From positions 3,296,001 through 3,360,000 of the forward strand of contig OZ242010.1 of assembly GCA_965204745.1 (NCBI GenBank): a stretch of 64,000 nt of DNA, written 5' to 3'. The notes below the pieces were generated by a model. That model was not told the DNA's origin. It worked only from the letters and a program-made list of their open reading frames with translations, and did not search any database. Positions 782 to 46,390 of this stretch are shown piece after piece (positions within the stretch are counted from its first letter, which is position 1; each line of letters starts with the position of its first letter). This stretch comes from Candidatus Latescibacterota bacterium (GTDB lineage Bacteria > Latescibacterota > UBA2968). The translations under genes were made by a program, and so were the position numbers.

Positions 782-900
782 GAGAATCTCCTTTGCTAAA
801 GCCTGCGACTGAATAACACCCCTGCAACACAGGCCATGAATGCCTGTATCAGGGTACAAAATTCCTAAATGGTCGACCGCTTGGGGGACGGGGATTGGGA

Positions 901-974
901 CTGACTACTGACTACTGACTACTGACTACTGACTACTGACTACTGACTACTGACTACTGACTACTGACTACTGA
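901..974. repeat. Heptamer tandem repeat (CTGACTA)n, left part (10.5 copies)
   Basis: Perfect 7-mer array seen directly; continues after the IS630 at 2123-2214. Confidence 0.97.
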
Positions 975-2122: not shown

Positions 2123-2214
2123 TGACTACTGACTACTGACTACTGACTACTGACTACTGACTACTGACTACTGACTACTGACTACTGACTACTGACTACT
2201 GACTACTGACTACT
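2123..2214. repeat. Heptamer tandem repeat (CTGACTA)n, right part (about 13 copies)
   Basis: Perfect 7-mer array seen directly. Confidence 0.97.
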
Positions 2215-2269
2215 TGAGCAATGGCGGGGTTGCCTCACCTCTCCCGTCTCCCCTCTTGTATCTTGGAAG

Positions 2270-2470
2270 TAAGGGTTAATTAGGAGTTGCGCCCTCGTAT
2301 CGAGATAAGCCATCTTGATGCCCGGCTCGGGGAAGGCCGGCCCCTCTTGAAGGCGATGACCTTGTAGGTAAGATAGGCCCCCCGACCACCGGGTCTATGC
2401 CGAAGAGTATCTAAGCCCCTTGAGGCTGCATATACAAGACCGGTAGACTTGGCGTCAATGGTCGGGACGC
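2270..2470 (+). ncRNA. Predicted IS110 bridge RNA, copy 1 (boundaries approximate)
   Basis: Guides CCCCTCTT (2341-2348), AGGTAAGA (2366-2373), AGAGTATCT (2404-2412) and ATACAAGA (2432-2439) match target and donor arms; each pair flanks an internal hairpin. Confidence 0.85.
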
Positions 2471-2522
2471 GACCCCGAGCGCACACCAGACCCTTACAAC
2501 CCCCTCATCACAGGAGGCCCCC

Positions 2523-3530
2523 ATGTCGAAATCTCAACCCGCTTTTGCCGGCATTGATGTCAGTGCCCGCACGTTGTCCGTTGCCCTGTCCAGACCCGGA
2601 CAAGCTGTCATGCAAGCGACCTTTGCCAATGATCCCCAAGCCCATAAGCGGTTGCTGCAGTGGCTCACGAAGGGCGGGCACATGGTCTCTGTGTGCCTCG
2701 AAGCGACCGGGCTTTACAGTTTGGGGGTGGCCTTGGCCTTGCATCGGCATCGCCACACAAAGGTCATGGTCGTCAATCCCAAAGCGATGAGCAAGTACGC
2801 CCAAGCCTGCATGCAACGGGCGAAGACGGATGCGAAGGATGCGTTGTTGATCCTCGACTATGCCGAGCGCATGCCTTTTGTGCCTTGGCAAGCGCCGAGC
2901 GAGCAACGGCTTCAACTGCAAGCCCTCACCAGACGCATTGACCAACTCAAGCAGGAGATCATCCGCGAACAGAGCCGCAACCACGCGCAGAGCTACCACA
3001 TCCGCAGCACACGGCGCATCGCACGCGATATTCAGGTGAATATTCGACACTTCAAACGCCGCATTGCCTACTTGGAAAGCCAAGCCCTCGATCTCGTTTT
3101 GCACGATGAGCCCCTCAAGCGTGCCTACCAACGCCTCTGCTCGACGCCTGGCATCGCGCAAACGAGTGCCTTGCGGCTCTTGGCCGAGTTGACCCTTTTG
3201 CCAGAGGAGATGCAACCGCCCCAGTGGGTCGCACATGCAGGCCTGGATCCCAAACCCAAACAATCCGGAACCGCCAATCCACAAAGACGCATCTCGAAAA
3301 CCGGGAATAAGTACCTCCGCCATGCCCTCTATATGCCTGCCTGGGTGGCCAGCAGACACGAAGTCCATGTCAAAGCCTTCTATGACCAACTCATCGCCCG
3401 CGGCAAGAAACCTTTGCAGGCTATCGTTGCGGTGATGCGAAAGTTGCTCCATTCGATCTGGGGCATGTTGCGCCATGACCAAGATTTTGAGGGCGAAAAA
3501 TTCTATCGAATCACCCCGAAAACCCCTTGA
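2523..3530 (+). CDS. IS110 DEDD recombinase/transposase
   Basis: GIDVS, LEATG, KTDAKDA (DEDD) and QSG serine motif; AGGAGG RBS. Confidence 0.95.
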   Translation: MSKSQPAFAGIDVSARTLSVALSRPGQAVMQATFANDPQAHKRLLQWLTKGGHMVSVCLEATGLYSLGVALALHRHRHTKVMVVNPKAMSKYAQACMQRAKTDAKDALLILDYAERMPFVPWQAPSEQRLQLQALTRRIDQLKQEIIREQSRNHAQSYHIRSTRRIARDIQVNIRHFKRRIAYLESQALDLVLHDEPLKRAYQRLCSTPGIAQTSALRLLAELTLLPEEMQPPQWVAHAGLDPKPKQSGTANPQRRISKTGNKYLRHALYMPAWVASRHEVHVKAFYDQLIARGKKPLQAIVAVMRKLLHSIWGMLRHDQDFEGEKFYRITPKTP

Positions 3531-6950: not shown

Positions 6951-6972
6951 AATCGGAAAATAAAAAAATAAC

Positions 6973-8793
6973 ATGGCAAAAAGAACGCCTACAAACAGGA
7001 CGCACCGCAACAGATCGCCCGCAAAGCAAAGTCGGCGGGCGCGACAGCGGGCGGCCAGGGGAAACGCGAAGACGCGACAGCATCAACCGCGCCGCGAATC
7101 GCGCAAACCGACGCGGTGGGACGCGCTGGGCATCCTCGCGCTCGGCCTGTTGGTGGTGGTCAGCTACTTCCCCGCGTTCTTTGCCGGCTTTGTCTGGGAC
7201 GACGAGATCATCACCGAGTCAGTCGTCCAAAATTGGTCCGGCTTGTGGCACATCTATTTCTCGCCCACGGAGATCGAGCGCGAGGGGCACTACTGGCCGC
7301 TGGTCTATACGACCTTCTGGTTAGAGCACAAGTTGTGGGGCTATGCCCCGGCCGGCTACCACATCGTCAATGTTTTACTGCACCTCGTCAACACCCTGCT
7401 CCTTTGGCGTCTGATCGAGCGGTTGACCGTGCCCGGCGCGTGGATCCTCGCCGCCGTATTCGCAGTTCATCCCCTGCATGTCGAGTCCGTCGCCTGGGTG
7501 ATCGAGCGCAAGGACGTGCTCTCGGGGCTATTCTATCTCACCGCCTTCTCGACTTATGTTCGCTTCGCGGCGGAGAATCGTTCGACGCGGAGGCGAAGAA
7601 CCTATCTCTCGGCACTCGCGCTGTTCGCACTGGGGTTGCTGTGCAAGTCCATCGTAGTTACCCTGCCCGCGGCACTGGTGATCTATCACTGGTGGCAAGA
7701 TGACCGCATAACCGGCGCGGACCTGCTCAGGTTGGCGCCATTTTTCGCGCTGGGGCTGATCGCCGTGGTGGCGGATACCCTATTCTACCAGTCCAGAGAA
7801 CCCCTTGCCCTCGGCTACGCCATGCTCGAGCGGGTGCTCATCGCAGCGCACGCCCTGTGGTTCTACGCGGGCAAGTTGCTATGGCCGGTGGACTTAGCGG
7901 TCATCTATCCCCATTGGGACGTGAGCGTCACAGACCCGCTGGCCTGGAGTTATGTCATAGCCGCTGTTGCAGTGGTCGCGGCACTTTACGGCTTTCGACA
8001 TCGGATCGGGCGAGGGCCGCTGGCCGGCGCGCTGTTCTTCGCGGTGACCCTGTCGCCCGTGCTCGGCTTTGTGGACTTCGGGTACATGCAATTCTCCTTT
8101 GTCGCGGACCGTTACCAATATCTGGCCGGTATCGGGTTGATGACCGTGCTCGTCGGTGCCGCGACTTCTGGCGTGGGACGCCTGCCGGAGGGCTGGCGAA
8201 AGGGCGCGACGGGCGTCGCTGTGGTCGCGCTGATCGCCATGGGGACCCTGACCTATCAGCAGGCGGGCATCTACCGGGACGAGGTGACTTTCTTTAGCCA
8301 TATCGTCTCGCACAATCCCACGGCTCGGGGGGCATACCAAAATCTCGGCCGCGCACTGCTCGCCGTACAACGCCCGGAAGAAGCACTGGACGCTTCTCGC
8401 ATCGCCGTGGAACAAGACCCAGACGATGTCAAGGCGCGTGTCAACGCAGGCGTCGCGCTCATACGCTTGGGCCGGTTCGACGAGGGAGAGGCATGGTTGC
8501 GCCACGCCTTGGAACTGGATTCGCAACAGATGGTTGCCTTTCAGAACCTGGCAGAGGCACTCAGGCGCCAGGGCAGATTCGAGGAATCGCTCGAATTTTA
8601 TCGCACCGCGATTCAGATGGATCCCGAAAACGCCTTGCCGTATGCCGGTATGGGCGACGCCCTCTTTCACCTGAAGCGATACGGAGAGGCCCTTCAGAAC
8701 TTCAACCGGGCACTCGCGCTGGCTCCGACCCTAAAAACAGTGCGAGAGATGCGCGCATCCACGCTGACGTTCCTGGGGCGAACTGGCGAATAG
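6973..8793 (+). CDS. TMTC-like GT-C glycosyltransferase with TPR repeats (paralog 1)
   Basis: FVWDD, YWPL, FAVHPLHVESVAWVIERKD and ADRYQYL motifs; C-terminal TPRs. Confidence 0.82.
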   Translation: MAKRTPTNRTHRNRSPAKQSRRARQRAARGNAKTRQHQPRRESRKPTRWDALGILALGLLVVVSYFPAFFAGFVWDDEIITESVVQNWSGLWHIYFSPTEIEREGHYWPLVYTTFWLEHKLWGYAPAGYHIVNVLLHLVNTLLLWRLIERLTVPGAWILAAVFAVHPLHVESVAWVIERKDVLSGLFYLTAFSTYVRFAAENRSTRRRRTYLSALALFALGLLCKSIVVTLPAALVIYHWWQDDRITGADLLRLAPFFALGLIAVVADTLFYQSREPLALGYAMLERVLIAAHALWFYAGKLLWPVDLAVIYPHWDVSVTDPLAWSYVIAAVAVVAALYGFRHRIGRGPLAGALFFAVTLSPVLGFVDFGYMQFSFVADRYQYLAGIGLMTVLVGAATSGVGRLPEGWRKGATGVAVVALIAMGTLTYQQAGIYRDEVTFFSHIVSHNPTARGAYQNLGRALLAVQRPEEALDASRIAVEQDPDDVKARVNAGVALIRLGRFDEGEAWLRHALELDSQQMVAFQNLAEALRRQGRFEESLEFYRTAIQMDPENALPYAGMGDALFHLKRYGEALQNFNRALALAPTLKTVREMRASTLTFLGRTGE

Positions 8794-29046: not shown

Positions 29047-30463
29047 GCGCGAAAAGGCATCCGAGCGATCATCTCTTCGCATCAAGAGGTGGTTGCGGCA
29101 AAGGCGAATCTATCGCGGCATTAAAGAAGTGCCCTTTATGCCCTATGAGGATGATAGATCCAAGGGCAGACCAGGGTACTGAAAAATCCAATTTTGATCC
29201 ACATCCGCTCCATGGCAGTACGTCTTGCTCCCATCGCGCAATGAGGGCGATCACAAGTAAGACCGATCCCTTGGAGCTTTTTTTTGTACAAGTCGAGAAA
29301 GGATCGCGCCCATGGCGAAACGAGCGAGAACGCCCAAATCCGTCGAAACCCTCACGCACGGCGATGCGACGCGCAAGAATATTCCCACCGCCGAGTATCA
29401 ACCCGTGATGCGGGAAGAGGAGCAAACCCCGATTCGAGTCGCCTATCAGCGGCGCAACCGCGACCTCGATCCGCAACTCGTCTGGCGCGGCAAGGACGAG
29501 CAGGATTGGTCCGATTTGGTCGTTCAAGCCCCGCCGATCTTCATCCAAGAGAAGGTGCATCCCAAGGTCGTGATCGACGACCTGATGCGCCAATGCGCGG
29601 AGACAGCCACCACAGCACAGGGGTTCCAGCCCGACTTGTTCGCCGATTTCAACGGCCTGCCCGACCCAAGCGCGGCGACCGAGTTCTATCAGCACGACGC
29701 CAACTGGTCAAACCGCATGATCCTCGGCGACAGCCTGCAAGTGATGGCATCCTTGGCCGAGCGCGAGGGCCTGCGCGGTCAAGTGCAGTGCATTTACATC
29801 GACCCGCCCTACGGCATCAAGTTCAATTCCAATTTCCTACCGGCAACACCCAGCCGCGAGGTGCGAGATGGCAAGCGCGAGCACATCACGCGAGAGCCAG
29901 AGCAGATCAAGGCGTATCGGGATACGTGGCGCGACGGCATCCATTCCTACCTGACCTACCTCCGCGACCGCCTGACCGTAGCACGCGACTTGCTGACCGA
30001 GAGCGGGTCATTGTTCTTTCAGATCGGAGACGAAAATGTCCATCGCGTCAGGGCGTTGATGGACGAGATATTTGGGGATGAGAATTTTGTCGGGGAGATT
30101 ATTTTCAAAACCCGTAGCACTTCTACCAGCAAAAATCTGTCTGCATTGAACGATTACATCATCTGGTATTGTAGAGATATTAATGCTCTAAAATTCCGTC
30201 AATTTTACGTGCCGAAAAGTGCTGACAGGGCGCGTTTCAGTTTTGTCGATATTGATGGCGAAGTTTTCAGGGCGAGTAAAAATGCCGGGAGCGTTAAAAT
30301 ATTTTCAAGTAGTAGCCTGTTTTCAACAAGCGGCGGCGACGCCTCCCGGATTCCCTTTGAGTTCCGTGGCAAAGAATATACCCCGGCAACCTCTCGCGGA
30401 TGGCGCTGCTCACTTGATGGACTATTACGCCTTACCTATGCAAGCCGTATATTTAACCAAGGT

Positions 30464-31543
30464 TAGGACTTACGCCAGGGTCATTGGTATCGCCGGTGTT
30501 TTGAGTTGTTGTCTCAAATAATCCTCCCATAAGCCATGTTTGACTTGATAGATGGTTTGTCCAGTCTGATAGGCGACTTGGGTCAGTCGTCCCCAAACGA
30601 GAAAGGCACACGCGATGTGGTTTCGCACAATGCGTGCCAATCGGCATTGACACTTTTCAAGCCCCGTTACCTGTTTTGCTTCCCGGTGAACTTGCTCAAT
30701 CTTCCAACGCAAGTGGCACACCGCTTGTGCCACTGACGGGTCGGTTTGAGTCAAGTCGTTGGTTACGATATACGCCGTGCGTCTCGTCGCAGACGCGACC
30801 CGGAATACGTTCACCTTGTGGTTTTTAGGGAACCCTCTGAGTTTCATGCGTTTTCCTGTGGCCTGTTCGCGTTTTGTCCAAGTTAAGGCATCGACCCGTT
30901 GATAGGGGTTTTCACCTGACGAATCGTCCACGAGGCGATTCTTTTTGATAGGACAGTAATAGGTCTTTTGCAAGTGCTCAATGTGAAGCATGACCGCTTT
31001 GGTGGCATACCAAGTATCCATCACCACTCGCTCAAAAGGCAGTTTTTTGTGATAGACCAAGAGTGACAACATCTCTTTGACGTGGTCTAACTTGGTTTTT
31101 CCATCCCCTTGCGGATCGTAAATGCGATAGTCAATCAGCCAAAACCGATCTTGAATCGGATTGACATACACACACGTCACCACACCGATCCCCGAGATGA
31201 CCCCCTTCGCATTGCCACTGTATTGCCGACGCACGAGAGCCATCTTTTTGGCATAGCGCTTATCTAAGACCGTGTCATCAAAGAGAATTACGCCCTTTGC
31301 GGTCGACGTGAGGTGGGGTTTGACGTTTTTCCAGATCACACGCGGCGAGACGCGATCCCCACCCAGATAGCGGTTGAGCATATCATGCGTGAACCGGTCG
31401 CTGTGATCTGCGAAATGAGTCAGGGTATAATTGAGCGGACTGCTAAGCAGATACTGGCAGTAATCCAAGCGCGTTGGTTTCGCCATACAGACCTCCAAAG
31501 TGAGGATGGGGGTTCGATCCTGTTCTTTTTTGCGTAAGTCCTA
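30464..31543 (-). mobile_element. IS701-family element, copy 2
   Basis: IRs TAGGACTTACGC; 6-bp TSD CAAGGT (30458-30463, 31544-31549). Confidence 0.92.
30470..31486 (-). CDS. IS701-family transposase
   Basis: Intact 338-aa ORF, GGAGG RBS; FDDT, MDTWY, RWKIE motifs. Confidence 0.9.
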   Translation of the reverse strand: MAKPTRLDYCQYLLSSPLNYTLTHFADHSDRFTHDMLNRYLGGDRVSPRVIWKNVKPHLTSTAKGVILFDDTVLDKRYAKKMALVRRQYSGNAKGVISGIGVVTCVYVNPIQDRFWLIDYRIYDPQGDGKTKLDHVKEMLSLLVYHKKLPFERVVMDTWYATKAVMLHIEHLQKTYYCPIKKNRLVDDSSGENPYQRVDALTWTKREQATGKRMKLRGFPKNHKVNVFRVASATRRTAYIVTNDLTQTDPSVAQAVCHLRWKIEQVHREAKQVTGLEKCQCRLARIVRNHIACAFLVWGRLTQVAYQTGQTIYQVKHGLWEDYLRQQLKTPAIPMTLA

Positions 31544-33040
31544 CAAGGTAATTCTATCCGCTATAAATACTTTCACGACGATTTCCCATTCGTCGAAGGC
31601 GGGAATCTATGGATTGATCAAATGTCCGAGCAAAACAAATCTTATGTGGTGCAAACATCTCCAAGACCCATTGAACGTTGCGTCCTCATGACCACCGACC
31701 CTGGCGACCTCGTCCTCGATCCCACCTGCGGGGCTGGCACAACCGCGTATGTTGCCGAGCAGTGGGGCAGGCGGTGGATCACCATCGACACCAGCCGAGT
31801 TGCCCTCGCGTTGGCGCGTGCGCGCATCATGGGGGCGCGTTATCCCTACTACTTGCTCGCGGACAGCGCGGAGGGGCAGCGCAAGGAAGCGGAAATCAGC
31901 CGCACCGCGCCATCGGAAATGCCCGCGCATGGCGACGTCCGCCAAGGCTTTGTGTATGAGCGCGTGCCGCACATCACCTTGCGCGACATCGCCAACAACG
32001 CGGAAATCGACATCATTTGGGACAAATATCAAAAAACGCTCGAACCGCTTCGGGAATCGCTCAACGAGGCTCTCGACGAGACATGGCGGGAATGGGAAAT
32101 CCCACGCGAAGCCGACGCGGCGTGGTCAGACGAGGCCAAGGCATTGCACGGCCAATGGTGGGAACAGCGCATCGCCCGGCAAAAAGAGATCGACGCGTCT
32201 ATCGCGGCAAAGGCGGACTACGAGTATCTCTACGACAAGCCCTACGAGGACAAGAAAAAGGTGCGCGTCGCCGGCCCGTTCACGGTCGATAGCCTATCCC
32301 CGCACCGCGTTTTGGGCGTCGATGAAAACGACGACCTCATCGACAGCGCAACAATGCGCGGCGACAGTGAATCGCAGGATTTTGCCGAGATGATCATGGA
32401 GCACCTCAAAACCGCGGGCGTGCAACAGGCGCGCAAAGACGACCGGATCGCGTTTTCGTCTCTCGCGCCGTGGCCGGGCGATTTGGTTTGCGCCGAGGGC
32501 ACGTACGCCGAGGGCGACTCGGATTCTGGCATCTACAAACGCGCTGGTATTTTCATCGGCCCCGAGTTCGGCACGGTCTCGCGTCCCGACTTGGTGAGGG
32601 CCGTGCGCGAGGCGGGCGAAGCCGATTTCGATGTGCTCATCTCCTGCGCGTTCAACTACGACGCCCAATCCACGGAGTTCGACAAACTGGGGCGCGTCCC
32701 GGTGCTCAAAGCGCGCATGAACGCGGATCTCCACATGGCCGACGATCTCAAGAACACGGGCAAGGGCAATTTGTTCGTGATTTTTGGGGAGCCGGATATC
32801 GACATTCTCGACGCAGACGACGGTCAAATCCAAGTCAAGGTCAATGGCGTGGATGTCTTCCATCCCAACACCGGCGAGATTCGCAGCGACGGCGCCGACG
32901 GCATCGCCTGTTGGTTCATCGACACGGACTACAACGAGGAGAGTTTTTTCGTGCGCCACGCCTACTTCCTCGGCGTGAAGGACCCGTACAGATCCCTCAA
33001 GACCACGCTCAAAGCCGAGATCGACCCCGACGCTTGGGCC

Positions 33041-33200
33041 ACCCTGTACAGCGACACGTCGCGGCCGTTCGCCAAACCCACCTCCGGACGCATCGCGGTC
33101 AAGGTGATCAACCACTTGGGCGATGAAGTGATGAAAGTATTTCGGGTATAAGGGCATTGATCGCGACGAAAGGCTATGTGATTAAGTGATGTCGTGACGC
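33041..33200. repeat. 160-bp direct repeat, copy A (mod 3' end plus downstream)
   Basis: Matches 38978-39137 with scattered substitutions. Confidence 0.95.
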
Positions 33201-33668
33201 CTGGTGTCTCAAGATGTGTGATGTTTTCAGAAACCACTTGGCGCATCCTCGATTGCACGCTATATTTTGAAACATAGAGATATAAACCTTTCTGTTCGCG
33301 AGCAATTGTCAGCGCACGGAAAGAGAGGGAAGGATAAAGGGTGCTTGTGTATGATTGAGCACCCTTCTTTTTTAACTCAAAAAATGGGATTACAGCGACG
33401 CAATAAATTCGACAAACGCGCTCCAATTTGCCAATAGAGATAGGGAGGTCAAAGAAATTTGGCCTCCCTAAATTGTTGTAAAATCGCTGGATGTGTGAAC
33501 TTGATTTTGATATTTGGATGTTTTTATAGTGAACTATCAAAATAAATCTTGACACAAGAGATAGAAATTGGTACCTTTCTTTCATATCTTGATTTCTGTG
33601 CCACTTTTCCATAGGTGGGAATCTATTCTCTCGCAGAAATCGCCACCATTCATGATAAGGAGTATCAC

Positions 33669-34928
33669 ATGAACAGAAATGCCCCAGTAGCACATTTGAC
33701 CGAACCAACGGATATTCTGTTGGCAGATGTCGCGATTCGCATCCAACTCCGGCCGACGCATTACAACATGGCTGTTGAGCGGTATCAGAAGATCAGCAAA
33801 TTGATTGAGCGAGGCAACAGCCCCCTCAAGGATCGTGTCGATCTGTTTTATCCGCAGGGATCTATGGCTATCGGCGCAACTATCGCGTCTAAACTCAAGA
33901 CGGATGAGTTTGACCTCGATGTGGTTGCACAACTTGATCTGCCTGAGTCAGTATCACCTTCTGAGCCACTGGATTTGCTGTTTGAAGCAATCAGAGGCGA
34001 GCCTGGTTCCCGGTATTATCGAATGACCAAGCGGAGGACCCGTTGTGTCACTGTCAGTTACAGCGACAAGATGCACATTGACATTACGCCGCTCATTCGT
34101 CGCTACCAATACACTCCAGAGCGTGAAAGCTGGATTTTTCATGACCGGCCAGAAGCACCCCAAGAGCCGGGTAAGAAACTTATCGCCAATCCCTATGGTT
34201 TTGCCGAGTGGTTCAAGGATAACACACCACCCGATCAAGATTTTGCCGGTATCTTTGAGAAACGTGCGGCTGAATACGAGCGAAAGGTGATGCTAGAAGC
34301 GGAAAGTGAACCTGTTCCCCCTCCCGAGCCGCCATTCCGAAAATCGAAGGCAGTGATCGTGCTTCAACTCCTGAAGCGCTGGCGCAATGTGCAATACGAT
34401 ACGCGACAGGGGCGCAGGCCCCCATCAATTCTGATTGCGAAACTCGTCGCCGATGTTGCGAACCATACGGACCGGCTGTCAGAAGAATTATTGCTTCAGG
34501 TACGGCACATGCTGTCTGTATTCCAAAATTGCCATAATGCGGGCAAGCGTATTCATGTCTCAAATCCCGTGTGTGACCAAGATGTTTTGACTGATCGATG
34601 GCCGGAAACGTTGCAAGATCAAGCAGTGTTTCTCCGAGATCTTGAAAATCTTGTTGCCAAAGTTGACCGACTGGTCTCTGGTTGTGATCTTGGCAAGATG
34701 CAGAAAATCATGATAGAGTTGTTCGGTGAAGCACCGACGACAGAAGCCTTCCAAGCCTTCAATGAACGGATGGGCGATCAAATCCGTACAGGGCAAAGTA
34801 GGCACCGCTCTGGTACTGGTTGTTTAGTCCTTCCAGCAAGCACAGCGGGGGCCATCAATCCGACATCCTCAAGAGGGACTCGAACTACTCCAAAGCACAC
34901 CTTTTACGGTAACGACAGGAAAAAATAA
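33669..34928 (+). CDS. CBASS CD-NTase (cGAS/DncV-like, SMODS nucleotidyltransferase)
   Basis: QGS-x-x-IG...EFDLD and HIDITP motifs, LLKRWR, VSNPV, C-terminal HTFYG; AAGGAG RBS; upstream TTGACA-17-TACCTT at 33549. Confidence 0.85.
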   Translation: MNRNAPVAHLTEPTDILLADVAIRIQLRPTHYNMAVERYQKISKLIERGNSPLKDRVDLFYPQGSMAIGATIASKLKTDEFDLDVVAQLDLPESVSPSEPLDLLFEAIRGEPGSRYYRMTKRRTRCVTVSYSDKMHIDITPLIRRYQYTPERESWIFHDRPEAPQEPGKKLIANPYGFAEWFKDNTPPDQDFAGIFEKRAAEYERKVMLEAESEPVPPPEPPFRKSKAVIVLQLLKRWRNVQYDTRQGRRPPSILIAKLVADVANHTDRLSEELLLQVRHMLSVFQNCHNAGKRIHVSNPVCDQDVLTDRWPETLQDQAVFLRDLENLVAKVDRLVSGCDLGKMQKIMIELFGEAPTTEAFQAFNERMGDQIRTGQSRHRSGTGCLVLPASTAGAINPTSSRGTRTTPKHTFYGNDRKK

Positions 34929-35362
34929 TGGGACTGACGATTTGGAAACAGGCTGAACTCATGAAACGATCCTGGCCTGACTTTCGGGTTCTTCATCAAA
35001 TTCGTTGGTTTATATGCTGGGAGGGGCAACTTCGGCCTTTTAATCAAACATACATAGTTCAAATATTCCTCTCACGCAAACGGGGATGTAGCCGTGACAA
35101 ATTATTGACAGTTCCGGCCGTGATGGTAATTGATCCCCTGCTGTGCAGGCGAGTTGAAAATCCCAGTGAACCCATACCACATCACTATCCAAACCAAGAG
35201 CATCCCGAGTTACCCTTTCTTTGCCTCTACGATCCCGATACTCAAGAGTGGCACCCCGGTCGATCGGTAGCCCAGACTATTATCCCTTGGACGATTGATT
35301 GGCTGGCGTGCTACGAGGGTTGGCTTGCCACTGGAAAATGGACCGGAGGTGGTCGTCACTGA
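34928..35362 (+). CDS. Prokaryotic E2-like protein (short type II CBASS)
   Basis: IPHHY...LCLY...EW...TIIPW...WL..YE.WL.TG.W.GGG pattern; translationally coupled to the CD-NTase. Confidence 0.78.
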   Translation: MGLTIWKQAELMKRSWPDFRVLHQIRWFICWEGQLRPFNQTYIVQIFLSRKRGCSRDKLLTVPAVMVIDPLLCRRVENPSEPIPHHYPNQEHPELPFLCLYDPDTQEWHPGRSVAQTIIPWTIDWLACYEGWLATGKWTGGGRH

Positions 35363-35384
35363 TTATAGGTTAAGTAGGGGTACA

Positions 35385-36440
35385 ATGTCCACTAGCAAAG
35401 AGAATCCTCCGAAACGATCATCCGGTGCGCTCACTCAGCGTCGTGTTCCACTACCTTGGCCACAAGATCGGGAGTTTCGTATCCTCTCTATCAATGGTGG
35501 TGGCATCCGTGGAATATTTCCGGCCGCATTCTTGGCAGGGTTGGAGGAACGCTATCTCAACGAAACTTCTGTGGCCCAATACTTTGATCTTATTGCTGGA
35601 ACCTCAACCGGAGGTATTATTGCCCTTGGACTCGCTGCTAGGCTTCCAGCCGCTGAACTGCGAGACCTTTATATTGAGCGCGGATGCGAAATTTTCCCTC
35701 CTATTCGTAACGGCCTTTTTGGAGTAGCAGAACGACGCCTGAAAAACTTTTGCCAATATTTTAAATTTCGCTATGATCGCGATGCCCTTATGCGCGTCCT
35801 CAATGATACCTTTGGCGACCGAAAATTTGGCGAAGCACAGACCAGGTTGTGCATACCCTCTTTTGATGGTCAGTATGGAGAAGTATATATTTTTAAGACG
35901 CCACATCATCCAGACTTCCGCAATGATGCTAAGGAGTACATGACAAAGGTGGCCGCGGCTACATCTGCAGCGCCGACATTCTTCCGTCCACTTGAGGATG
36001 GTGGATACAAATTCGTTGATGGTGGAGTTTGGGCAAACAATCCCATTATGATTGCATTGGTCGATGCGTTATCCTGCTTTTCCGTACCGCGAGAACGCAT
36101 CCGCATTCTAAGTTTGGGCTGTGGAGATGACGAATATCCTGTTGGCAAGTTGAAAATGTTGTTGGGCGGCAAATTATCTTGGTACGACATCATCTTTGCA
36201 GCGATGCGTCTCCAGTCTCTCAACGCTCTTGGTCAAGCCGGGTTGCTAATTGGTGCTAACAGAATTATGAAAGTCAACGCGCCCATTTGTGGCAAGCAAA
36301 TACAACTAGACGATTGGAGTCGCGCTGTGGAAGAGTTGCCCTCGGTTGCCATAGCGACTCTCGACGAGATCGGCGAAACCGTGGCGTCTGCATTTTTAGC
36401 AGAGCCCGCTACTCCTTACCAGCCAATTATCCCCATCTGA
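35385..36440 (+). CDS. Patatin-like phospholipase, CBASS effector (CapV-like)
   Basis: GGGIRG, GTSTGG, SAAPTFF and DGGVWANNP motifs. Confidence 0.88.
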   Translation: MSTSKENPPKRSSGALTQRRVPLPWPQDREFRILSINGGGIRGIFPAAFLAGLEERYLNETSVAQYFDLIAGTSTGGIIALGLAARLPAAELRDLYIERGCEIFPPIRNGLFGVAERRLKNFCQYFKFRYDRDALMRVLNDTFGDRKFGEAQTRLCIPSFDGQYGEVYIFKTPHHPDFRNDAKEYMTKVAAATSAAPTFFRPLEDGGYKFVDGGVWANNPIMIALVDALSCFSVPRERIRILSLGCGDDEYPVGKLKMLLGGKLSWYDIIFAAMRLQSLNALGQAGLLIGANRIMKVNAPICGKQIQLDDWSRAVEELPSVAIATLDEIGETVASAFLAEPATPYQPIIPI

Positions 36441-36651: not shown

Positions 36652-37908
36652 ATGCTGACGCAGCGTGAATTGGGACAGCGGTTGAAACGGGCGCGAGAGG
36701 CAACCGGGTTGACTCAACAGCAGGTCGCCGAGCATGTTGCGCTCACCCGGGTTGCCATCTCCCAAATTGAGTCGGGGCACCGCATGGTCAGTTCGCTTGA
36801 ATTGACGCGCTTGGCGCGCCTTTACGGCCGGGATATCGCCAGTTTCTTAGAAGAAAAGCCCTCCCCGAATGAAAAAGAAAACGCGCTGACCGTCCTGTTT
36901 CGCGCACATCCCGATCTCATGCAAAACCCCACCCCCCTGCGAAACGCCACCGAACTGTTCCGAGAATATACCAATCTGAAAGCCCTCTTGGATCTGGATA
37001 CAGAACAGAACCTGCCGCCTAGATATGCTTGTGCCGAACCGAGAAATGTTTGGGAAGCCATTCAAATGGGCGAACGGGCCGCCGAGGCGGAACGCAGTCG
37101 TCTGGCATTGGGGATAGATCCCATCCGCGACATGGCCGAGTTGGTGGAATCCCAGGGCATACCCGTCATTGAAATTGATTTGGACGATCAGATATCGGGT
37201 ATTTTTATGACCGATGCCGAGGGGCAATTGTGCATCTTCATCAACCAGGCACAGTTCGACAAAGCCAAGGCTCGCGTCGCATTTACCATTGCCCATGAAT
37301 ACAGTCACATATTGCTCGACCGGGATAAGGTCAGTGCCATCAGCAAAATCTCAAATGATCGCGATTTGTTTGAAGTGCGTGCGAATGCGTTTGCCGCAGC
37401 GTTTCTCATGCCCGAAGAAGGCGTGAGTCAATTTCTCAAAACCATCGGCAAGGGCGAGGCCAGTCGCGAAAAGTTGTTGGCTTATACCGAGCAGCACGAT
37501 CCGCTTGTCGGGCATCATCGCCGCTTGGCATCCACCCAAATCATCACGCTTTACGATGTCGTCAAGCTGTGTATGTCCTTTGGAACCAGCTATGAAGCCG
37601 CCTTGTACAGATTGAGAAACACAAAATTTCTATCCGAAGGATCATTTGATCACCTCTACCGACGAAAAGACGAAGCAAGGGAAATTGTACAAAATCTCAA
37701 AATAGAAGGAAGGCGAGAATACCCCAGCAGTTTCGCCCTCAACTTCACGGGTATGGCTATCGAAGCCTATCGCCGCGACAAAATCACGTACGACAAATTG
37801 ATCGCGCTCGCCGATCAAGTGGCGTTTGATTCCAAGGTCATAGACCAAATACTTTGCTACATGGGACTGGAGAACAATCTCGAAGCAGAGGTCTATCTCC
37901 CGGAGTGA
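36652..37908 (+). CDS. XRE HTH fused to ImmA/IrrE-family zinc metallopeptidase
   Basis: N-terminal HTH_3; FTIAHEYSH (HExxH); EVRANAFAAAFLMP. Confidence 0.88.
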   Translation: MLTQRELGQRLKRAREATGLTQQQVAEHVALTRVAISQIESGHRMVSSLELTRLARLYGRDIASFLEEKPSPNEKENALTVLFRAHPDLMQNPTPLRNATELFREYTNLKALLDLDTEQNLPPRYACAEPRNVWEAIQMGERAAEAERSRLALGIDPIRDMAELVESQGIPVIEIDLDDQISGIFMTDAEGQLCIFINQAQFDKAKARVAFTIAHEYSHILLDRDKVSAISKISNDRDLFEVRANAFAAAFLMPEEGVSQFLKTIGKGEASREKLLAYTEQHDPLVGHHRRLASTQIITLYDVVKLCMSFGTSYEAALYRLRNTKFLSEGSFDHLYRRKDEAREIVQNLKIEGRREYPSSFALNFTGMAIEAYRRDKITYDKLIALADQVAFDSKVIDQILCYMGLENNLEAEVYLPE

Positions 37909-37912
37909 TCTC

Positions 37913-38431
37913 GTGCAACAAAAAACAGAGAGCCAGTCATGCGCGATCACAGACGCAAATATCCTGATCAACTTTATCAAACTTGGCCGCGTGGATATTC
38001 TCCAACAACTGCGAATGTATGCTTTCTATCTGTCCGAGGAAGTGTATCGGGAAATCACATATCCAGCACAACGGCTCGTTTTAGATCATGCCCTAAAAAA
38101 TGGATGGCTTAGAGAGACAGTGATAACGGATCAAAATGAATTGCGTTCTTATGCACAGTACAGACGACAAATGGGAGATGGAGAAGCCGCGTGTTTGGCG
38201 ATTGCGATTTGTCGAAAATGGATCATGGTCTGCGATGAGAAAAAAAAGAAACTGATTTCCAGAACTGTTCGGCATCATTTAGGAGCGGGTTATCTGCTGA
38301 ATACACCGGGTATTTTGCTCAAGGCCATACGCGAGGGTATTCTCACTGTATCACAAGCAGACGCAATCAAAAACACATTGGCGCAGAACCGATTTGTCAT
38401 GCCATTTGCATCTTTCCAGAATTTTATCTGA
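37913..38431 (+). CDS. PIN-domain protein
   Basis: ITDANILI, GDGEAACLAIA, CDE, TPGIL motifs. Confidence 0.78.
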   Translation: MQQKTESQSCAITDANILINFIKLGRVDILQQLRMYAFYLSEEVYREITYPAQRLVLDHALKNGWLRETVITDQNELRSYAQYRRQMGDGEAACLAIAICRKWIMVCDEKKKKLISRTVRHHLGAGYLLNTPGILLKAIREGILTVSQADAIKNTLAQNRFVMPFASFQNFI

Positions 38432-38453
38432 AATAGGACACCGTCCTGCTACC

Positions 38454-38488
38454 AAAAAGGCCGCGAGGGTTTCATTCCTCGCGGCCTT
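38454..38488. terminator. Terminator-like hairpin AGGCCGCGAGG-loop-CCTCGCGGCCT
   Basis: Strong stem with an A-tract on the left; a second copy at 42925-42957. Confidence 0.6.
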
Positions 38489-38537
38489 CCGAACATCCCT
38501 GCCGCTGTCCTACCCGTTACTTGAGCATGTTGCGGGC

Positions 38538-38657
38538 CACCGTCTCTCGGGTAACCGTCAAAATGCCTGGAGCATTTCGATATCTGGCAATTGGCGAATC
38601 GCGTTTGAAGAAGATGAAGGGTGTATTGACCGCTTAAACTTGGAGGATTACCACTGA
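38538..38657 (+). pseudogene. higB: 5'-truncated HigB toxin fragment
   Basis: HRLSGNRQNAWSISISGNWRIAF...LEDYH is the HigB C-terminal half; no proper start. Confidence 0.75.
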
Positions 38658-38944
38658 TGACAACTCATGGCATTGCAGTAACCATGACCCCTTCGCATCC
38701 GGGCGACTTCATTCGCACAGAGATCATCGAGGAGTTGGGGCTAAGCGTGACGCGGATAGCCGAGATTTTGGGAGTTCGTCAAGCGACGCTTTCAGAGGTG
38801 CTAAACGGCCATGCCGCGCTATCGCCGGAAATGGCCCTACGCATCGAAAAGGTATTTGACATCAGCATGGATATGTTGTTGCGAATGCAGGCTTGGTATG
38901 ACGCCTCGCAAATGCGCGCCCGGGCAAATGAGATTGAGGTTTAA
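38657..38944 (+). CDS. higA: HigA-family antitoxin (HTH)
   Basis: HPGDFI...LSPEMALRIEKVF...LRMQAWYD; coupled to the higB stop. Confidence 0.85.
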   Translation: MTTHGIAVTMTPSHPGDFIRTEIIEELGLSVTRIAEILGVRQATLSEVLNGHAALSPEMALRIEKVFDISMDMLLRMQAWYDASQMRARANEIEV

Positions 38945-38977: not shown

Positions 38978-39137
38978 ACCCTGCACAGCGACACGTCGCG
39001 GCCATTCGCCAAACCCACCTCCGGACGCATCGCGGTCAAGGCGATCAACCACTTGGGCGATGAGGTGATGAAAGTGTTTCGCGTGTGAGGGCATTGATCG
39101 CGACGAAAGGCTATGTGATTAAGTGATGTCGTGACGC
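38978..39137. repeat. 160-bp direct repeat, copy B (orphan mod 3' end)
   Basis: Encodes SDTSRPFAKPTSGRIAVKAINHLGDEVMKVFRV*, matching the mod C-terminus. Confidence 0.95.
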
Positions 39138-39259: not shown

Positions 39260-42200
39260 ATGAACCAATCTAAACTTCGTCAGTTGCTCGACCGTCTGTG
39301 CGGACTTCCAGAGAACGAATGGCTCGAGTTCAAGAAAGCGAAAAAGGGGTATGACTTCAATAAGTTAGGCCAGTATTTCTCCGCGCTGTCCAATGAAGCC
39401 AACCTCAACGGGCAAGCGTGCGGTTGGTTGGTATTCGGCGTAAGCGATGATCGTTCGGTTTGCGGCAGCCAGTTCCGCAAAGACCGAGCGGATCTTAACA
39501 GCTTGAAACATGAAATCGCCAATCATACGACTGGTGGCCTCACATTTGTCGATATTCACGTCGTTGAGCACCCGAACGGTCGCGTCGTGATGTTCGAGAT
39601 TCCGGCCGCATTACAAGGCATACCAACGGCGTGGAAAGAACATTGGTACGGACGCAATGGCGAGTCCCTAGGCGGTCTTAGCCTGATGGAATTGGAAAAA
39701 ATTCGGTCAAATTCTTCTGGCGGGCATCAAGACTGGAATCGCCACGAGTACGCCCCAGACTTGGCTATTGCCAACTTGCTTGGGTCATGGAATGAGCTAA
39801 ACGAAGCGGATGTAGAGATCGTGAGTCAACTGATCAATGATGAGGATTACGCAAAGTGGATTCTCAAAATGAGGGAGATGTTAAGCCAAGCGATAAGCCC
39901 TGTGAGATATGTAAATGGAAAATGGTATGTCGATGATCGAAAAGAACTGTGGCAGGCGTTGGGCAAACGAGTTTTTGACGAGAGCCTGAACGCCCTAAAA
40001 CAATGCGCTATCGCTGTCTTGTCCGAGTGCGATCCCCAGTTTGACTTACCTCCCGATGAACGCTATACCGCCCGTATCTCTGGAAAGACATTGAAGTACT
40101 CATCTACACTTCGGACAGGACTGACCGAAACGCTGGCACTGCTCGGCACTGCCCCCGATGCTTTGATCAATTTTTCACCTCAAGGTTGGAAGCCAAAAGA
40201 TACGGCTGATTTTGTCGTGCGAGAAATACTCGAGAATGCGGATTGGGTGTTGTGGGGAAGCCTTAGGGGTCTTCTCTCGACACTCGCAGAAGCAGCCCCG
40301 GATAAATTTTTGGATGCCGTGGAAAATGCCTTGCAACGATCCCTTTGCCCATTTGATGCGCTTTTCGCCCAAGAGGGTGCTCCGATCACTGGCAGCAGTT
40401 ATATGTCGGACTTGCTGTGGGCATTGGAAACACTCGCTTGGGATGCCGAGTACCTCGTCCGCGTATGTGTGATTCTCGGCAAACTCGCCAGCCGCGACCC
40501 GGGCGGCCCTTGGGCAAACCGTCCCGCCGATTCGCTGTCGATGATCTTATTGCCCTGGCTTCCACAAACGATCGCGCCAGTTGAAAAACGCAAAGTCGCC
40601 ATTCAAACGCTCTGCGATGAATTGCCAGAAATTGCTTGGAACTTGATCGTCAGCCTGTTGCCCGGCCAGAACCAGATAACCACTGGGACTCGCAAACCGG
40701 CCTGGCGCAATACCATACCCGTTGATTGGAAAGAAAAAGTTACCAGGCAGGATTATCGAGATCAAGTAGCGTTCTGCGCCGAACGCGCGGTTTCAATCGC
40801 AGGTTGTGATCCGGATAAACTCGGCGAACTGATTGACCATTTAGCCGGTTTTCCCAAACCTTCATTTCACGCGTTGCTCGAGACTTTAGCGTCTGATTCC
40901 ATTACAGCACTTTCAGAAGAAAAACGGTTACACCTTTGGGACAAACTCGTAAAATTCATATCCCGACACCGACGTTTATCGGGCGAAAAAGGGACTCGGA
41001 ACGATGGGTCGCTCGCGCCCATTGAGGCCGTTGCGAACGAGTTGGCTCCTAAGAATCCTTTGAATCTCTATCGCAGATTATTCAGCCGCAGTATTTGGGA
41101 TCACTCTACAAAAAGTGAAGATTGGACAAAGCAGCTCGATAGAGACCGTCAGCAAGCTATAAAAGAGATTTTGGCTTGCGGTGGGGTGGAGTTGGTCCTT
41201 CGATTCGCCGAAGTTGTCGAGGCCCCGTGGGATGTTGGTCGTTCTTTGGGTGCGATTGCCCAAGTGGAAAACGACAGACGCCTTCTGCCCGCATTGTTGG
41301 AAACCGAGAATGACAAACTCGCGCTGTTTGCAAATAACTATGTCAGAAGCCGCCAAAACATCGCTGGATGGAAATGGGTCGATGGCTTTGATATCTCGAA
41401 CTGGTCAGCTTCGCAAATAGGTCGATTCTTAGCCGCTTTGCCCTTCACGAGAGAAGCGTGGCACCGTGCTACAAAATGGCTCGGCAAGTCCGAAGAGGAG
41501 TACTGGAGCAAAACCAGCGCAAACCCATATAGTACCGATGAGGATCTCCGCTTTGCCATAGACAAACTGATCGCGCATGGCAGACCCCATGCGGCTATCA
41601 AATGTCTGATGTGCCAAATGGACCTCGGCAAACAGCCATTGGACAACGCTCTATGCGTAAAGGCTCTTAGGGCCGCCATTTCTTCTTATGAACCTTCCCA
41701 TGAAGTAGAGACGCATAGCATCATTGCAATCGTAAAGGCTTTACAGGACGATCCCAAAACCGATCCCGACGCGCTTTTTCAAATCGAATGGGCATATCTG
41801 CGCTTGCTCGACAAATATTATCACCCTGACGCATCGCCGAAGACATTGAAAAATAGGCTGGCTTCTGATCCCGAGTTTTTTTGTGAAGTGATACGCCTCG
41901 TCTATCGGTCAAAAAGGGAAACGGAATCTCCGCAACAACTCGATGACCGAGATAAAGTCATTGCCGACAACGCATACGAACTCCTCCGTAACTGGCAGAC
42001 TCCTCCAGGTACGCAAGCGGATGGTCGATTTTTGCCGGAACAATTCGAGAAGTGGTTCAAACGAACAAAAGAAGCGTGTGTTGAATCTGGACATCTCGAA
42101 GTCGCTCTCAGGCGTATAGGTGAAGTTCTCATTCATGCCCCACCGGATCCAAAAGGGCTGTGGATCCATCGAACCCTAGCATCTGCGCTCAACACAGAGG

Positions 42201-42508
42201 ATGCGGGGGAAATGAGGGATGGGTTCCGGGTCGGAATTTACAATGCTCGCGGGGTTCATGTGGTTGACCCAACGGGAAAACCAGAGCGAGAGCTCGCCGA
42301 AAAATACAGACAACAGGCCGAAGAAGTTGAAAATGCGGGCTATCACCGTTTTGCTATTACACTCCGGAACTTGGAAAAAGAATACAATCGGGAGGCGGAA
42401 GTATATGTCGCTGAGCATCAACGGGAAAGTGCCCGCCAATTGGCACGCCTCGGCGGGAGCGAGCCACAACTGCAATCCATACCACGCCAACGGACTGATC
42501 GCGCATGA
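39260..42508 (+). CDS. Schlafen/AlbA_2-domain protein with large helical region and VapB-like C-terminal tail
   Basis: ENEWLEFK, SALSN, GWLVFGVSD and YGRNGES motifs; tail RESARQLARLGGSEPQLQSIPRQR. Confidence 0.75.
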   Translation: MNQSKLRQLLDRLCGLPENEWLEFKKAKKGYDFNKLGQYFSALSNEANLNGQACGWLVFGVSDDRSVCGSQFRKDRADLNSLKHEIANHTTGGLTFVDIHVVEHPNGRVVMFEIPAALQGIPTAWKEHWYGRNGESLGGLSLMELEKIRSNSSGGHQDWNRHEYAPDLAIANLLGSWNELNEADVEIVSQLINDEDYAKWILKMREMLSQAISPVRYVNGKWYVDDRKELWQALGKRVFDESLNALKQCAIAVLSECDPQFDLPPDERYTARISGKTLKYSSTLRTGLTETLALLGTAPDALINFSPQGWKPKDTADFVVREILENADWVLWGSLRGLLSTLAEAAPDKFLDAVENALQRSLCPFDALFAQEGAPITGSSYMSDLLWALETLAWDAEYLVRVCVILGKLASRDPGGPWANRPADSLSMILLPWLPQTIAPVEKRKVAIQTLCDELPEIAWNLIVSLLPGQNQITTGTRKPAWRNTIPVDWKEKVTRQDYRDQVAFCAERAVSIAGCDPDKLGELIDHLAGFPKPSFHALLETLASDSITALSEEKRLHLWDKLVKFISRHRRLSGEKGTRNDGSLAPIEAVANELAPKNPLNLYRRLFSRSIWDHSTKSEDWTKQLDRDRQQAIKEILACGGVELVLRFAEVVEAPWDVGRSLGAIAQVENDRRLLPALLETENDKLALFANNYVRSRQNIAGWKWVDGFDISNWSASQIGRFLAALPFTREAWHRATKWLGKSEEEYWSKTSANPYSTDEDLRFAIDKLIAHGRPHAAIKCLMCQMDLGKQPLDNALCVKALRAAISSYEPSHEVETHSIIAIVKALQDDPKTDPDALFQIEWAYLRLLDKYYHPDASPKTLKNRLASDPEFFCEVIRLVYRSKRETESPQQLDDRDKVIADNAYELLRNWQTPPGTQADGRFLPEQFEKWFKRTKEACVESGHLEVALRRIGEVLIHAPPDPKGLWIHRTLASALNTEDAGEMRDGFRVGIYNARGVHVVDPTGKPERELAEKYRQQAEEVENAGYHRFAITLRNLEKEYNREAEVYVAEHQRESARQLARLGGSEPQLQSIPRQRTDRA

Positions 42509-42870
42509 TTTTAGTTGATACCTCCGTCTGGATTGATCATTTGAGTAGCGAAGAAAATCACTTGGTTATCCTATTAAATAATGGTCTGGTATTGACTCAC
42601 CCCATGGTCGTTGGAGAACTGGCTTGCGGCAATCTGAGCAATCGCGGAGCGATTTTGACGATGCTCAAAAATTTGCCCCAAGCATCGGTTGCCCCCGATG
42701 ACCAAGTGCTTCGCTTCATTGAACGGAACCAACTCATGGGCCGTGGTATCAACTATATTGATTTTCATCTGCTGACCGCCACAGCATTGACTAAAGCGAC
42801 CGAACTTTGGACACGCGATAAACGGCTTATGGATGCTGCTAAACAACTAAATCTCGCTTACGAAATTTAA
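42505..42870 (+). CDS. vapC: VapC-family PIN toxin
   Basis: ILVDTSVWIDHL, HPMVVGELACG, IDFHLL, LWTRDKRL; ATGA overlap with the upstream gene. Confidence 0.9.
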   Translation: MILVDTSVWIDHLSSEENHLVILLNNGLVLTHPMVVGELACGNLSNRGAILTMLKNLPQASVAPDDQVLRFIERNQLMGRGINYIDFHLLTATALTKATELWTRDKRLMDAAKQLNLAYEI

Positions 42871-42924
42871 GGGAGGCAGGGAGGTCGCGTGTTTGGCGAT
42901 TGCGATTTGTCGGATGATGAGCAC

Positions 42925-42957
42925 AGGTCGCGAGGGTTTCATTCCTCGCGGCCTTTT
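42925..42957 (+). terminator. Rho-independent terminator (copy of the 38454 hairpin)
   Basis: AGGTCGCGAGG-loop-CCTCGCGGCCT followed by T residues. Confidence 0.65.
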
Positions 42958-45126: not shown

Positions 45127-46134
45127 TCAAGGGGTTTTCGGGGTGATTCGATAGAATTTTTCGCCCTCAAAATCTTGGTCATGGCGCAACATGCCCCAGA
45201 TCGAATGGAGCAACTTTCGCATCACCGCAACGATAGCCTGCAAAGGTTTCTTGCCGCGGGCGATGAGTTGGTCATAGAAGGCTTTGACATGGCCTTCGTG
45301 TCTGATGGCCACCCAGGCAGGCATATAGAGGGCATGGCGGAGGTACTTATTCCCGGTTTTCGAGATGCGTCTTTGTGGATTGGCGGTTCCGGATTGTTTG
45401 GGTTTGGGATCCAGGCCTGCATGTGCGACCCACTGGGGCGGTTGCATCTCCTCTGGCAAAAGGGTCAACTCGGCCAAGAGCCGCAAGGCACTCGTTTGCG
45501 CGATGCCAGGCGTCGAGCAGAGGCGTTGGTAGGCACGCTTGAGGGGCTCATCGTGCAAAACGAGATCGAGGGCTTGGCTTTCCAAGTATGCAATCCGGCG
45601 TTTGAAGTGTCGAATATTCACCTGAATATCGCGTGCGATGAGACGTGTGCTGCGGATGTGGTAGCTCTGCGCGTGGTTGCGGCTCTGTTCGCGGATGATC
45701 TCCTGCTTGAGTTGGTCAATGCGTCTGGTGAGGGCTTGCAGTTGAAGCCGTTGCTCGCTCGGCGCTTGCCAAGGCACAAAAGGCATGCGCTCGGCATAGT
45801 CGAGGATCAACAACGCATCCTTCGCATCCGTCTTCGCCCGTTGCATGCAGGCTTGGGCGTACTTGCTCATCGCTTTGGGATTGACGACCATGACCTTTGT
45901 GTGGCGATGCCGATGCAAGGCCAAGGCCACCCCCAAACTGTAAAGCCCGGTCGCTTCGAGGCACACAGAGACCATGTGCCCGCCCTTCGTGAGCCACTTC
46001 AGCAACCGCTTATGCGCTTGGGGATCATTGGCAAAGGTCGCTTGCATGACAGCTTGTCCGGGTCTGGACAGGGCAACGGACAACGTGCGGGCACTGACAT
46101 CAATGCCGGCAAAAGCGGGGTGAGATTTCGACAT
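45127..46134 (-). CDS. IS110 DEDD recombinase/transposase
   Basis: Same protein as copy 2. Confidence 0.95.
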   Translation of the reverse strand: MSKSHPAFAGIDVSARTLSVALSRPGQAVMQATFANDPQAHKRLLKWLTKGGHMVSVCLEATGLYSLGVALALHRHRHTKVMVVNPKAMSKYAQACMQRAKTDAKDALLILDYAERMPFVPWQAPSEQRLQLQALTRRIDQLKQEIIREQSRNHAQSYHIRSTRLIARDIQVNIRHFKRRIAYLESQALDLVLHDEPLKRAYQRLCSTPGIAQTSALRLLAELTLLPEEMQPPQWVAHAGLDPKPKQSGTANPQRRISKTGNKYLRHALYMPAWVAIRHEGHVKAFYDQLIARGKKPLQAIVAVMRKLLHSIWGMLRHDQDFEGEKFYRITPKTP

Positions 46135-46189
46135 GGGGGCCTCCTGTGATGAGGGGGTTGTAAGGGATCTGGTGCGCGCTCGGGGTCGC

Positions 46190-46390
46190 GTCCCGACCAT
46201 TGACGCCAAGTCTACCGGTCTTGTATATGCAGCCTCAAGGGGCTTAGATACTCTTCGGCATAGACCCGGCGGTCGGGGGGCCTATCTTACCTACAAGGTC
46301 ATCGCCTTCAAGAGGGGCCGGCCTTCCCCGAGCCGGGCATCAAGATGGCTTATCTCGATACGAGGGCGCAACTCCTAATTAACCCTTACT
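46190..46390 (-). ncRNA. Predicted IS110 bridge RNA, copy 3 (boundaries approximate)
   Basis: Same four guide segments on the minus strand. Confidence 0.8.

Follow-up and report, generated by a model that had tools for sequence, protein, structure and literature searches.

Antitoxins are usually small, labile and self-regulating proteins. Here, we report a gene pair of a Candidatus Latescibacterota bacterium (GTDB lineage Bacteria; Latescibacterota; UBA2968) in which a 1082-amino-acid (aa) protein with a Schlafen head and a helical solenoid body ends in the C-terminal peptide of a VapB antitoxin and is followed directly by a vapC toxin gene. The pair lies in a stretch of 64,000 nucleotides (nt), called the window throughout (GenBank assembly GCA_965204745.1, contig OZ242010.1, positions 3,296,001 to 3,360,000 of the forward strand), and consists of one long open reading frame (ORF; 39260..42508, + strand), here called the giant, and vapC (42505..42870, + strand). 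The source genome measures 5.48 Mb, and the own-genome searches covered all of it.

The giant, its tail and vapC

The head of the giant matched Pfam PF04326 (SLFN_AlbA_2; E = 2.3e-13; 51.2 bits, cut-off 25.3) over aa 18-136 (39311..39667, +), in line with the AlbA_2/Schlafen domain named in the preliminary description of this DNA. The Ex4ExK motif stands at aa 18-25 (39311..39334, +), and its residues E18, E23 and K25 each reach 90% conservation or more across 25 tail-bearing giants; Ex4(E/D)xK is the motif defined for prokaryotic Schlafens in the available part of a recent preprint (10.1101/2025.07.24.666596). On domain match and motif the giant is assigned to the Schlafen/AlbA_2 family, with predicted RNase activity.

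An AlphaFold model of the giant (20-row alignment; mean pLDDT 76.2, pTM 0.50) was all helical from about aa 160, as anticipated from the sequence alone, and shows a HEAT/ARM-like solenoid as the body (about aa 160-1053; 39737..42418, +). Foldseek against the PDB returned generic HEAT/ARM solenoids only (karyopherins, CAND1; TM 0.16-0.23) and no specific relative. The body had no family in Pfam, NCBIfam or PADLOC and fell into unnamed clusters only in the ESM Atlas; PADLOC-DB v2 held no family for the giant or for VapC at E ≤ 0.1. The early statement that no Walker A motif is present held in substance, with no NTPase family found in the Pfam, NCBIfam and PADLOC scans, but not to the letter: a sole Walker-A-like pattern occurs at aa 737-744, within the all-helical stretch of the model. 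A STAND/AAA-type NTPase sensor (Avs-like) was considered and rejected, since no P-loop NTPase family was found and the fold search gave solenoids only. The modelled C-terminus is a long helix (aa 1029-1063) and, beyond it, a segment of low confidence (aa 1063-1082, pLDDT < 50), and the tail extends from this terminal helix without contact to the body.

The VapB-derived, putatively toxin-binding tail spans aa 1054-1082 (42419..42505, +; base 42419 is codon 1054), reads as quoted in the preliminary description and is predicted to be disordered alone from aa 1063. A short-protein search with the last 53 residues of the giant as query (database of 5.8 billion sequences; 18 candidates) gave 4 matches, all of them free PF09957 VapB_antitoxin proteins of 63-75 aa with 72-79% identity over about 30 residues (E 1.8e-4 to 1.8e-3). 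A BLASTP comparison of the giant with one free VapB from the same phylum gave 22 identities in 32 positions (E = 2e-11), and hhalign of 25 tail-bearing giants against 24 free VapBs aligned 31 columns (template columns 43-73) at 98.0% probability (E = 2.3e-13). These sequence comparisons confirmed the homology of the giant's final ~27 residues to the C-terminal end of a PF09957-type VapB, and bore out the resemblance, pointed to in the preliminary description, to the VapBs that precede this type of VapC. Only profile positions 37-63 of 65 are matched; the ribbon-helix-helix (RHH) half is gone, and no RHH DNA-binding family was found in the giant in the Pfam or NCBIfam scans. Throughout the genome the VapB profile matched a single place, the tail itself (42419-42499, E = 2.1e-8; 56 candidates scored), so that the absence of another vapB, first noticed locally, extends to the whole genome. 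A free VapB of this type encoded elsewhere and acting in trans was rejected on the same search.

The stop codon of the giant and the start codon of vapC overlap as ATGA (42505..42508, +), as first read from the ORFs, and the same overlap is found at the loci L003, L010, L012 and L082-L085. The vapC product is a seemingly intact PIN-domain toxin of 121 aa, assigned with Pfam and an alignment (Pfam PIN, aa 2-112, E = 1.5e-7; 32.5 bits, cut-off 23.6), with the acidic residues D5, E38, D86 and D104 all present; in an alignment of 24 relatives, D5 and E38 are invariant and D86 is at least 90% conserved. Its homologue count in the genome is one (single copy). A sequence search of the PDB gave no match at E ≤ 0.01, and VapC weakly resembles the solved Mycobacterium tuberculosis VapBC11 (6a7v) and VapBC15 (4chg) in sequence. 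The junction of the two genes was bridged with no gaps by metagenome contigs of four runs from four studies, on which ground an assembly artefact was rejected; the only indel over the pair in those runs was an in-frame one of 6 nt at 40860, in one run. A promoter and terminator scan found no more sites than in shuffled sequence.

The tail and VapC were also co-folded, as the preliminary description had suggested, using VapC with a 24-row alignment and giant aa 1030-1082 with a 25-row alignment. The pair scored 0.78 (runs 0.54, 0.78 and 0.79) against 0.01 for the best of three controls; of the solved complexes, 58 of 80 attained the mark it passed, as did 2 of 110 mismatched pairs, approximate counts that calibrate only roughly because our own alignments were used. 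Contacts agreed between runs at 61% or more, with partner pLDDT of at least 68. In the predicted interface, tail residues 1053-1062 and 1064-1074 pack against VapC residues 6-7, 10, 12-17, 20-29, 38-46 and 50-58, on the face bearing D5 and E38, i.e., the active-site face. The model supports, rather than demonstrates, binding of VapC by the tail.

Spread of the fusion and loss of the toxin gene

Among relatives of the giant (8000 candidates scored, 2139 at E ≤ 0.001), the tail was present in 58 of the 120 best listed. Tail-type giants (at least 66% identity over the last 500 residues) were found in 9 of the 21 genomes surveyed in the window's genus. Species-representative genomes hold at least 564 confirmed loci of the giant's family; of the 80 best, which were examined, seven carry the tail and all seven are from Latescibacterota. 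One tail-bearing homologue, P0003, has a body 90% identical to that of the giant and a TIR head instead of a Schlafen head. Metagenome contigs searched with the last 300 aa of the giant gave 16 loci, in which all matches end at or before residue 274, and added no tail-bearing loci. The fusion is therefore not unique to this genome, whereas uniqueness was what the preliminary description would have taken to favour an accident; it is old and conserved, and not a one-off event.

VapC homologues (E ≤ 1e-10) were detected in 34 of the 168 genomes of the phylum survey, and the 29 best loci from other genomes were inspected. At 25 of these (42-56% identity to the VapC of the window) the toxin gene is preceded by a free VapB of 61-69 aa with the same C-terminal motif, 24 of them called by pattern and the 25th, at L088, having a variant start. 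The remaining four (61-81% identity) all belong to the window's genus, and there the tail of a giant comes before vapC, with the same ATGA overlap. An origin of the fusion by in-frame loss of the 5′ part of vapB is supported, and to this extent the surviving deletion first offered as an alternative stands; its age and conservation speak against a recent accident.

Conservation of the tail was assessed on the 25 aligned tail-bearing giants. In the tail core, 15 of 24 residues are invariant, against 247 of 1054 in the body, and only 12 of 1059 spans of 24 residues along the alignment reach 15 invariant positions. The residues conserved in the tail are exactly those conserved in free VapBs. Synonymous codon differences equalled or outnumbered non-synonymous ones in 27 of 28 genome pairs.

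The toxin gene is kept in five of the nine tail-bearing genomes of the genus and deleted in the other four, where no VapC of this type was found anywhere in the genome. At L004 and L005 the remnant consists of the ATGA and the first 13 vapC codons, followed by a break; at L002 and L006 an in-frame deletion has brought the tail up against the final four codons of vapC, with the same downstream sequence after them. From these two kinds of remnant it follows that the ancestor of the clade had vapC and that at least two losses have removed it since, leaving the giant and its tail whole. The four vapC-less loci fall in four separate places of a tree of 64 tail-bearing giants and two outgroups (FastTree). 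In the five genomes that keep the gene (giants 62-84% identical), VapC is full length and retains all four acidic residues, and the ATGA overlap is kept at every vapC-bearing locus. Just downstream of tail-less giants, no VapC homologue was found at any of 73 loci (best E 0.54; + strand ORFs starting within 400 nt of the giant's stop codon, some loci ending shortly after the gene).

One position of the tail varies with the presence of the toxin gene in the genus. The Leu at codon 1064 (42449-42451), which precedes GGSEP and lies within the predicted co-fold interface, shows no variation among the 24 pattern-called free VapBs of the phylum and is also invariant in P0121-P0124. It is replaced by Arg in three of the four vapC-deleted genomes and in none of the four vapC-bearing genomes scored; the fifth (L012) also has Leu, and among the nine genomes the Arg form was thus seen only where vapC is lost. 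Arg occurs in 19 of the 58 database tails, scattered over at least 10 places of the tree. Two homologues, P0051 and P0068, end after about seven VapB-derived residues and may have a truncated tail. Separately, an ORF for a HipA-like kinase (~296 aa, PF07804) follows vapC or its remnant at L003 (7729-8619), with homologues at L004, L005 and L010; it was not found downstream in the window.

The surrounding island and the helical-body family

The pair is set in a defence island. A type III-like N6/N4 DNA methylase gene (29312-33151) is split by a DDE transposase (30470-31498, − strand), and is followed by a type II CBASS operon with cyclase (33615-34928; PADLOC, E = 2e-145), E2-like protein (34928-35362; E = 2.7e-44) and patatin phospholipase effector (35295-36440; E = 3.1e-110). 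Next come a protein with Xre-type helix-turn-helix (HTH) and M78 peptidase domains (PADLOC RmrA-like) and a 172-aa PIN-like/DUF3368 protein (PADLOC PDC-S70), at 36652-38431, which look like another toxin-antitoxin-type pair, and then a HigB-like remnant (weak match to the C-terminal part of the model only) with an intact HigA (TIGR02607, E = 3e-26) at 38394-38944. An IS110-family transposase lies at 45127-46209 (− strand). The GC content rises from ~50% in the island to ~60% from position 43000 on, where housekeeping-type genes start (amidohydrolase, epimerase).

Repeats bound the giant-vapC block on both sides. Directly upstream of the giant is the second copy (38978..39137) of a 160-nt direct repeat whose first copy (33041-33200) is the 3′ end of the methylase gene (95% identical); just downstream of vapC are D2 (42 nt, 42871-42912; a copy of 38173-38214) and the hairpin D3 (31 nt, 42925-42955; a copy of 38458-38488). 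Metagenome contig ends and one joint fall at the D2 and D3 repeats, and in one metagenome contig 39169 is linked to 42886 through 3493 nt of other sequence, as if the slot could take another cassette. L012 (~88% nt identity) has the same blocks in a different order, including an intact 918-aa version of the split methylase (759-3515).

Heads of the giant's family include Schlafen, TIR and domains without an assignment, the latter in forms of ~1180 and ~1270 aa. Of the 80 family loci, 13 have an hsdS gene directly upstream, which overlaps the start of the giant where checked; three such HsdS genes were scanned and all three matched PF01420. From a separate set of six loci, L046 was scanned; its upstream neighbour is an Eco57I/MmeI-type methylase and its downstream neighbour a gene with weak likeness to PglZ (16.6 bits, under the cut-off). 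The closest relative, L012, has an N6/N4 methylase upstream. These neighbours point to methylase-based immunity, and the helical body defines a large unannotated family, possibly a new defence family.

Two further members were noted. A paralogue in the same genome (L146:2479-6468, at ~1.35 Mb) is 1329 aa long, is 38% identical over the compared part and lacks the VapB tail; an Eco57I-type methylase lies upstream of it, and downstream a PIN_3 ORF (6542-7021) with a small overlapping ORF. This arrangement was set aside as a candidate second giant-toxin pair because there is no gene overlap and no VapB-type tail, and the small ORF overlaps the 3′ end of PIN_3. At L064 (1031-6664), one frame of 1877 aa holds a nucleotidyltransferase domain, HsdS-like target-recognition domains and a helical body, and may be a natural fusion of a specificity subunit with a family member.

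Proposed role of the pair

In our judgement the giant, through its fused VapB C-terminus, is probably the only antitoxin of this VapC, and the pair probably works as a dead-man's switch in which VapC is an optional guard and not part of the core mechanism. An old in-frame fusion joined the VapB C-terminus to a Schlafen-headed helical defence protein and removed the RHH DNA-binding half; with no separate VapB left, the VapC whose gene starts at the giant's stop codon would have no antitoxin but the giant. The disordered tail would fold onto the active-site face of VapC and silence it, which is how VapB C-termini silence VapC in solved VapBC complexes, and the ATGA overlap would tie the synthesis of VapC to translation of the giant running to its end. 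If the supply of full-length giant stopped, for instance because the cassette was lost, an early stop codon arose at any point of the 3.2-kb gene, a phage shut off the host or the giant was destroyed, VapC would be freed and the cell arrested. VapC would in this way guard the defence gene or the cassette, and may serve as a back-up abortive effector when a phage shuts off the host.

Several points weigh against this proposal. The hidden Markov model (HMM) search suggested in the preliminary description failed in its plain form, in that the tail alone (29, 49 or 102 aa) had no VapB match in Pfam and NCBIfam at E ≤ 10 and the full giant did not match the PF09957 VapB_antitoxin model, while the direct and profile-profile comparisons given above recovered the homology; the missing match is due to the PF09957 model, which spans VapB residues 1-47 only, a part mostly missing from the giant. 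VapC scored 27.9 bits against the NCBIfam VapC equivalog (cut-off 80). The co-fold may have passed through likeness to solved VapBC complexes, since such complexes exist. The tail is intact in the four genomes without VapC, so VapC is not its only reason to persist unless the losses are recent. Loss of the RHH half also removes the usual autoregulation, and a stable protein of 1082 aa is an unusual antitoxin.

The preliminary description had named a possible two-nuclease defence system, taken here as an integrated one in which the body would sense a phage cue, activate the Schlafen RNase in cis and release VapC, so that both nucleases fire. The location suits it, in an island with CBASS, the Xre-M78/PIN-like pair and a methylase, as do the relatives adjoining hsdS and other DNA-methylase genes, and the exchange of heads (Schlafen, TIR and others without assignment) on a constant body is reminiscent of sensor-effector proteins. 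The tail is moreover among the most conserved stretches of the giant, its contact with VapC is backed by the co-fold model, and prokaryotic Schlafen fusions are described as defending against phages in the available part of the preprint (10.1101/2025.07.24.666596). However, vapC was deleted in four of nine genomes that kept the giant whole, at least 73 of the 80 family loci examined work without any VapC, and the tail is predicted to hang disordered from the terminal helix with no modelled contact to the body. We therefore think such a system unlikely, and VapC did not hold up as an integral second nuclease; a dead-man's switch is preferred because the family and nearly half of the clade do without VapC.

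The pair could instead be a relic of an accidental, tolerated fusion, with VapC weak or disappearing and the pair having no role other than not killing the cell. The loss of vapC in four of nine genomes by at least two deletions would fit, as would the early ends of P0051 and P0068, which suggest tail decay, and the highly recurrent change from Leu to Arg (19 of 58 tails) at an interface position invariant in VapB. A relic is nevertheless quite improbable given a tail far more conserved than the body, an ATGA overlap preserved at every vapC-bearing locus and a toxin that keeps its length and four acidic residues in the five genomes retaining it. We give still less credence to a VapC-independent role of the tail within the giant, e.g., in oligomerisation or with another partner, to which neutralisation of VapC would be secondary: the intact tails in four genomes without this type of VapC could be explained by it, and the recurrent Arg could be adaptive, but no tail-less family member has a similar C-terminus, the conserved tail residues are those of free VapBs and the structure model shows no intramolecular tail contact.

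Compared with known systems, the dead-man's switch proposed here is closest in parts to VapBC modules with a PF09957 VapB, which likewise have a PIN toxin with four acidic residues and an antitoxin sequence directly upstream that runs into the toxin start; the C-terminal toxin-binding motif of the tail recurs in 25 of 25 free VapBs of the phylum. Unlike in those modules, no separate gene encodes the antitoxin, the RHH domain for DNA binding or dimerisation is missing, and only about VapB residues 37-63 survive, on the giant. The anticodon nuclease PrrC is held latent by the type I restriction-modification enzyme EcoprrI, and in PARIS AriA holds AriB; in both, an RNA-cutting or toprim toxin stays silenced by a large defence protein until some disturbance occurs, as is proposed for the giant, and PrrC sits in methylase operons as the giant's family does (hsdS in 13 of 80 loci). 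The giant differs from both in having no ABC-ATPase or other NTPase and in a tether that is a borrowed antitoxin peptide; a PrrC-like nuclease in a type I restriction-modification operon was not matched, there being no hsdS in the window and no ATPase domain in the giant.

Proteins that fuse toxin and antitoxin, and large proteins bearing toxin domains, are known (PMC10865869, as far as its available text goes). In CapRel(SJ46) and fused HicAB, as presented in that part of the article, an antitoxin element is likewise part of a larger defence protein and perturbation by infection is proposed to free the toxin; there the antitoxin shares a chain with its own toxin, on which it acts in cis, whereas the tail of the giant sits on a different effector and is proposed to act in trans. 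Prokaryotic Schlafens (pSlfn), in the portion of the preprint at hand (10.1101/2025.07.24.666596), likewise have an N-terminal Schlafen domain with Ex4(E/D)xK, a fused presumed sensor and a place in defence islands. The common partners named there (HisKinase, HTH, DUF5929, Ig-like, DUF262 and TBP-like) do not include the ~900-aa helical body, which may belong to the 17.2% of pSlfn listed with unknown partners. Schlafen RNases beside BREX, in the accessible text of a BREX survey (PMC12839542), have a histidine-kinase plus winged HTH architecture, unlike that of the giant. Literature searches turned up no VapB tail on a large effector protein, though such an architecture might be listed in the supplementary tables that accompany the Schlafen preprint and the BREX survey.

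In the case reported here, only the ~27-residue toxin-binding peptide of an antitoxin survives, moved onto the end of a defence protein of ~1050 residues and long kept there. If the tail neutralises VapC, a short antitoxin tail would suffice to leash a toxin to an unrelated protein, and a toxin could then watch over the intactness and expression of the defence gene next to it. Within the genus, the nine genomes amount to a natural experiment, five having kept vapC and four having deleted it. A wider reading, which we hold only tentatively and think doubtful, is that the giant's family are undescribed, widespread, methylase-linked immune sensors with a HEAT-like solenoid and interchangeable heads, and that in this Latescibacterota clade a captured VapB peptide gives the sensor control in trans over a second RNase, both being released by a phage cue or by phage attack on the sensor; were it true, it would be a natural case of an antitoxin peptide used as a portable leash that bolts a toxin onto an unrelated immune protein. 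The helical-body family beside hsdS and DNA-methylase genes is in any case worth testing as a new defence family.

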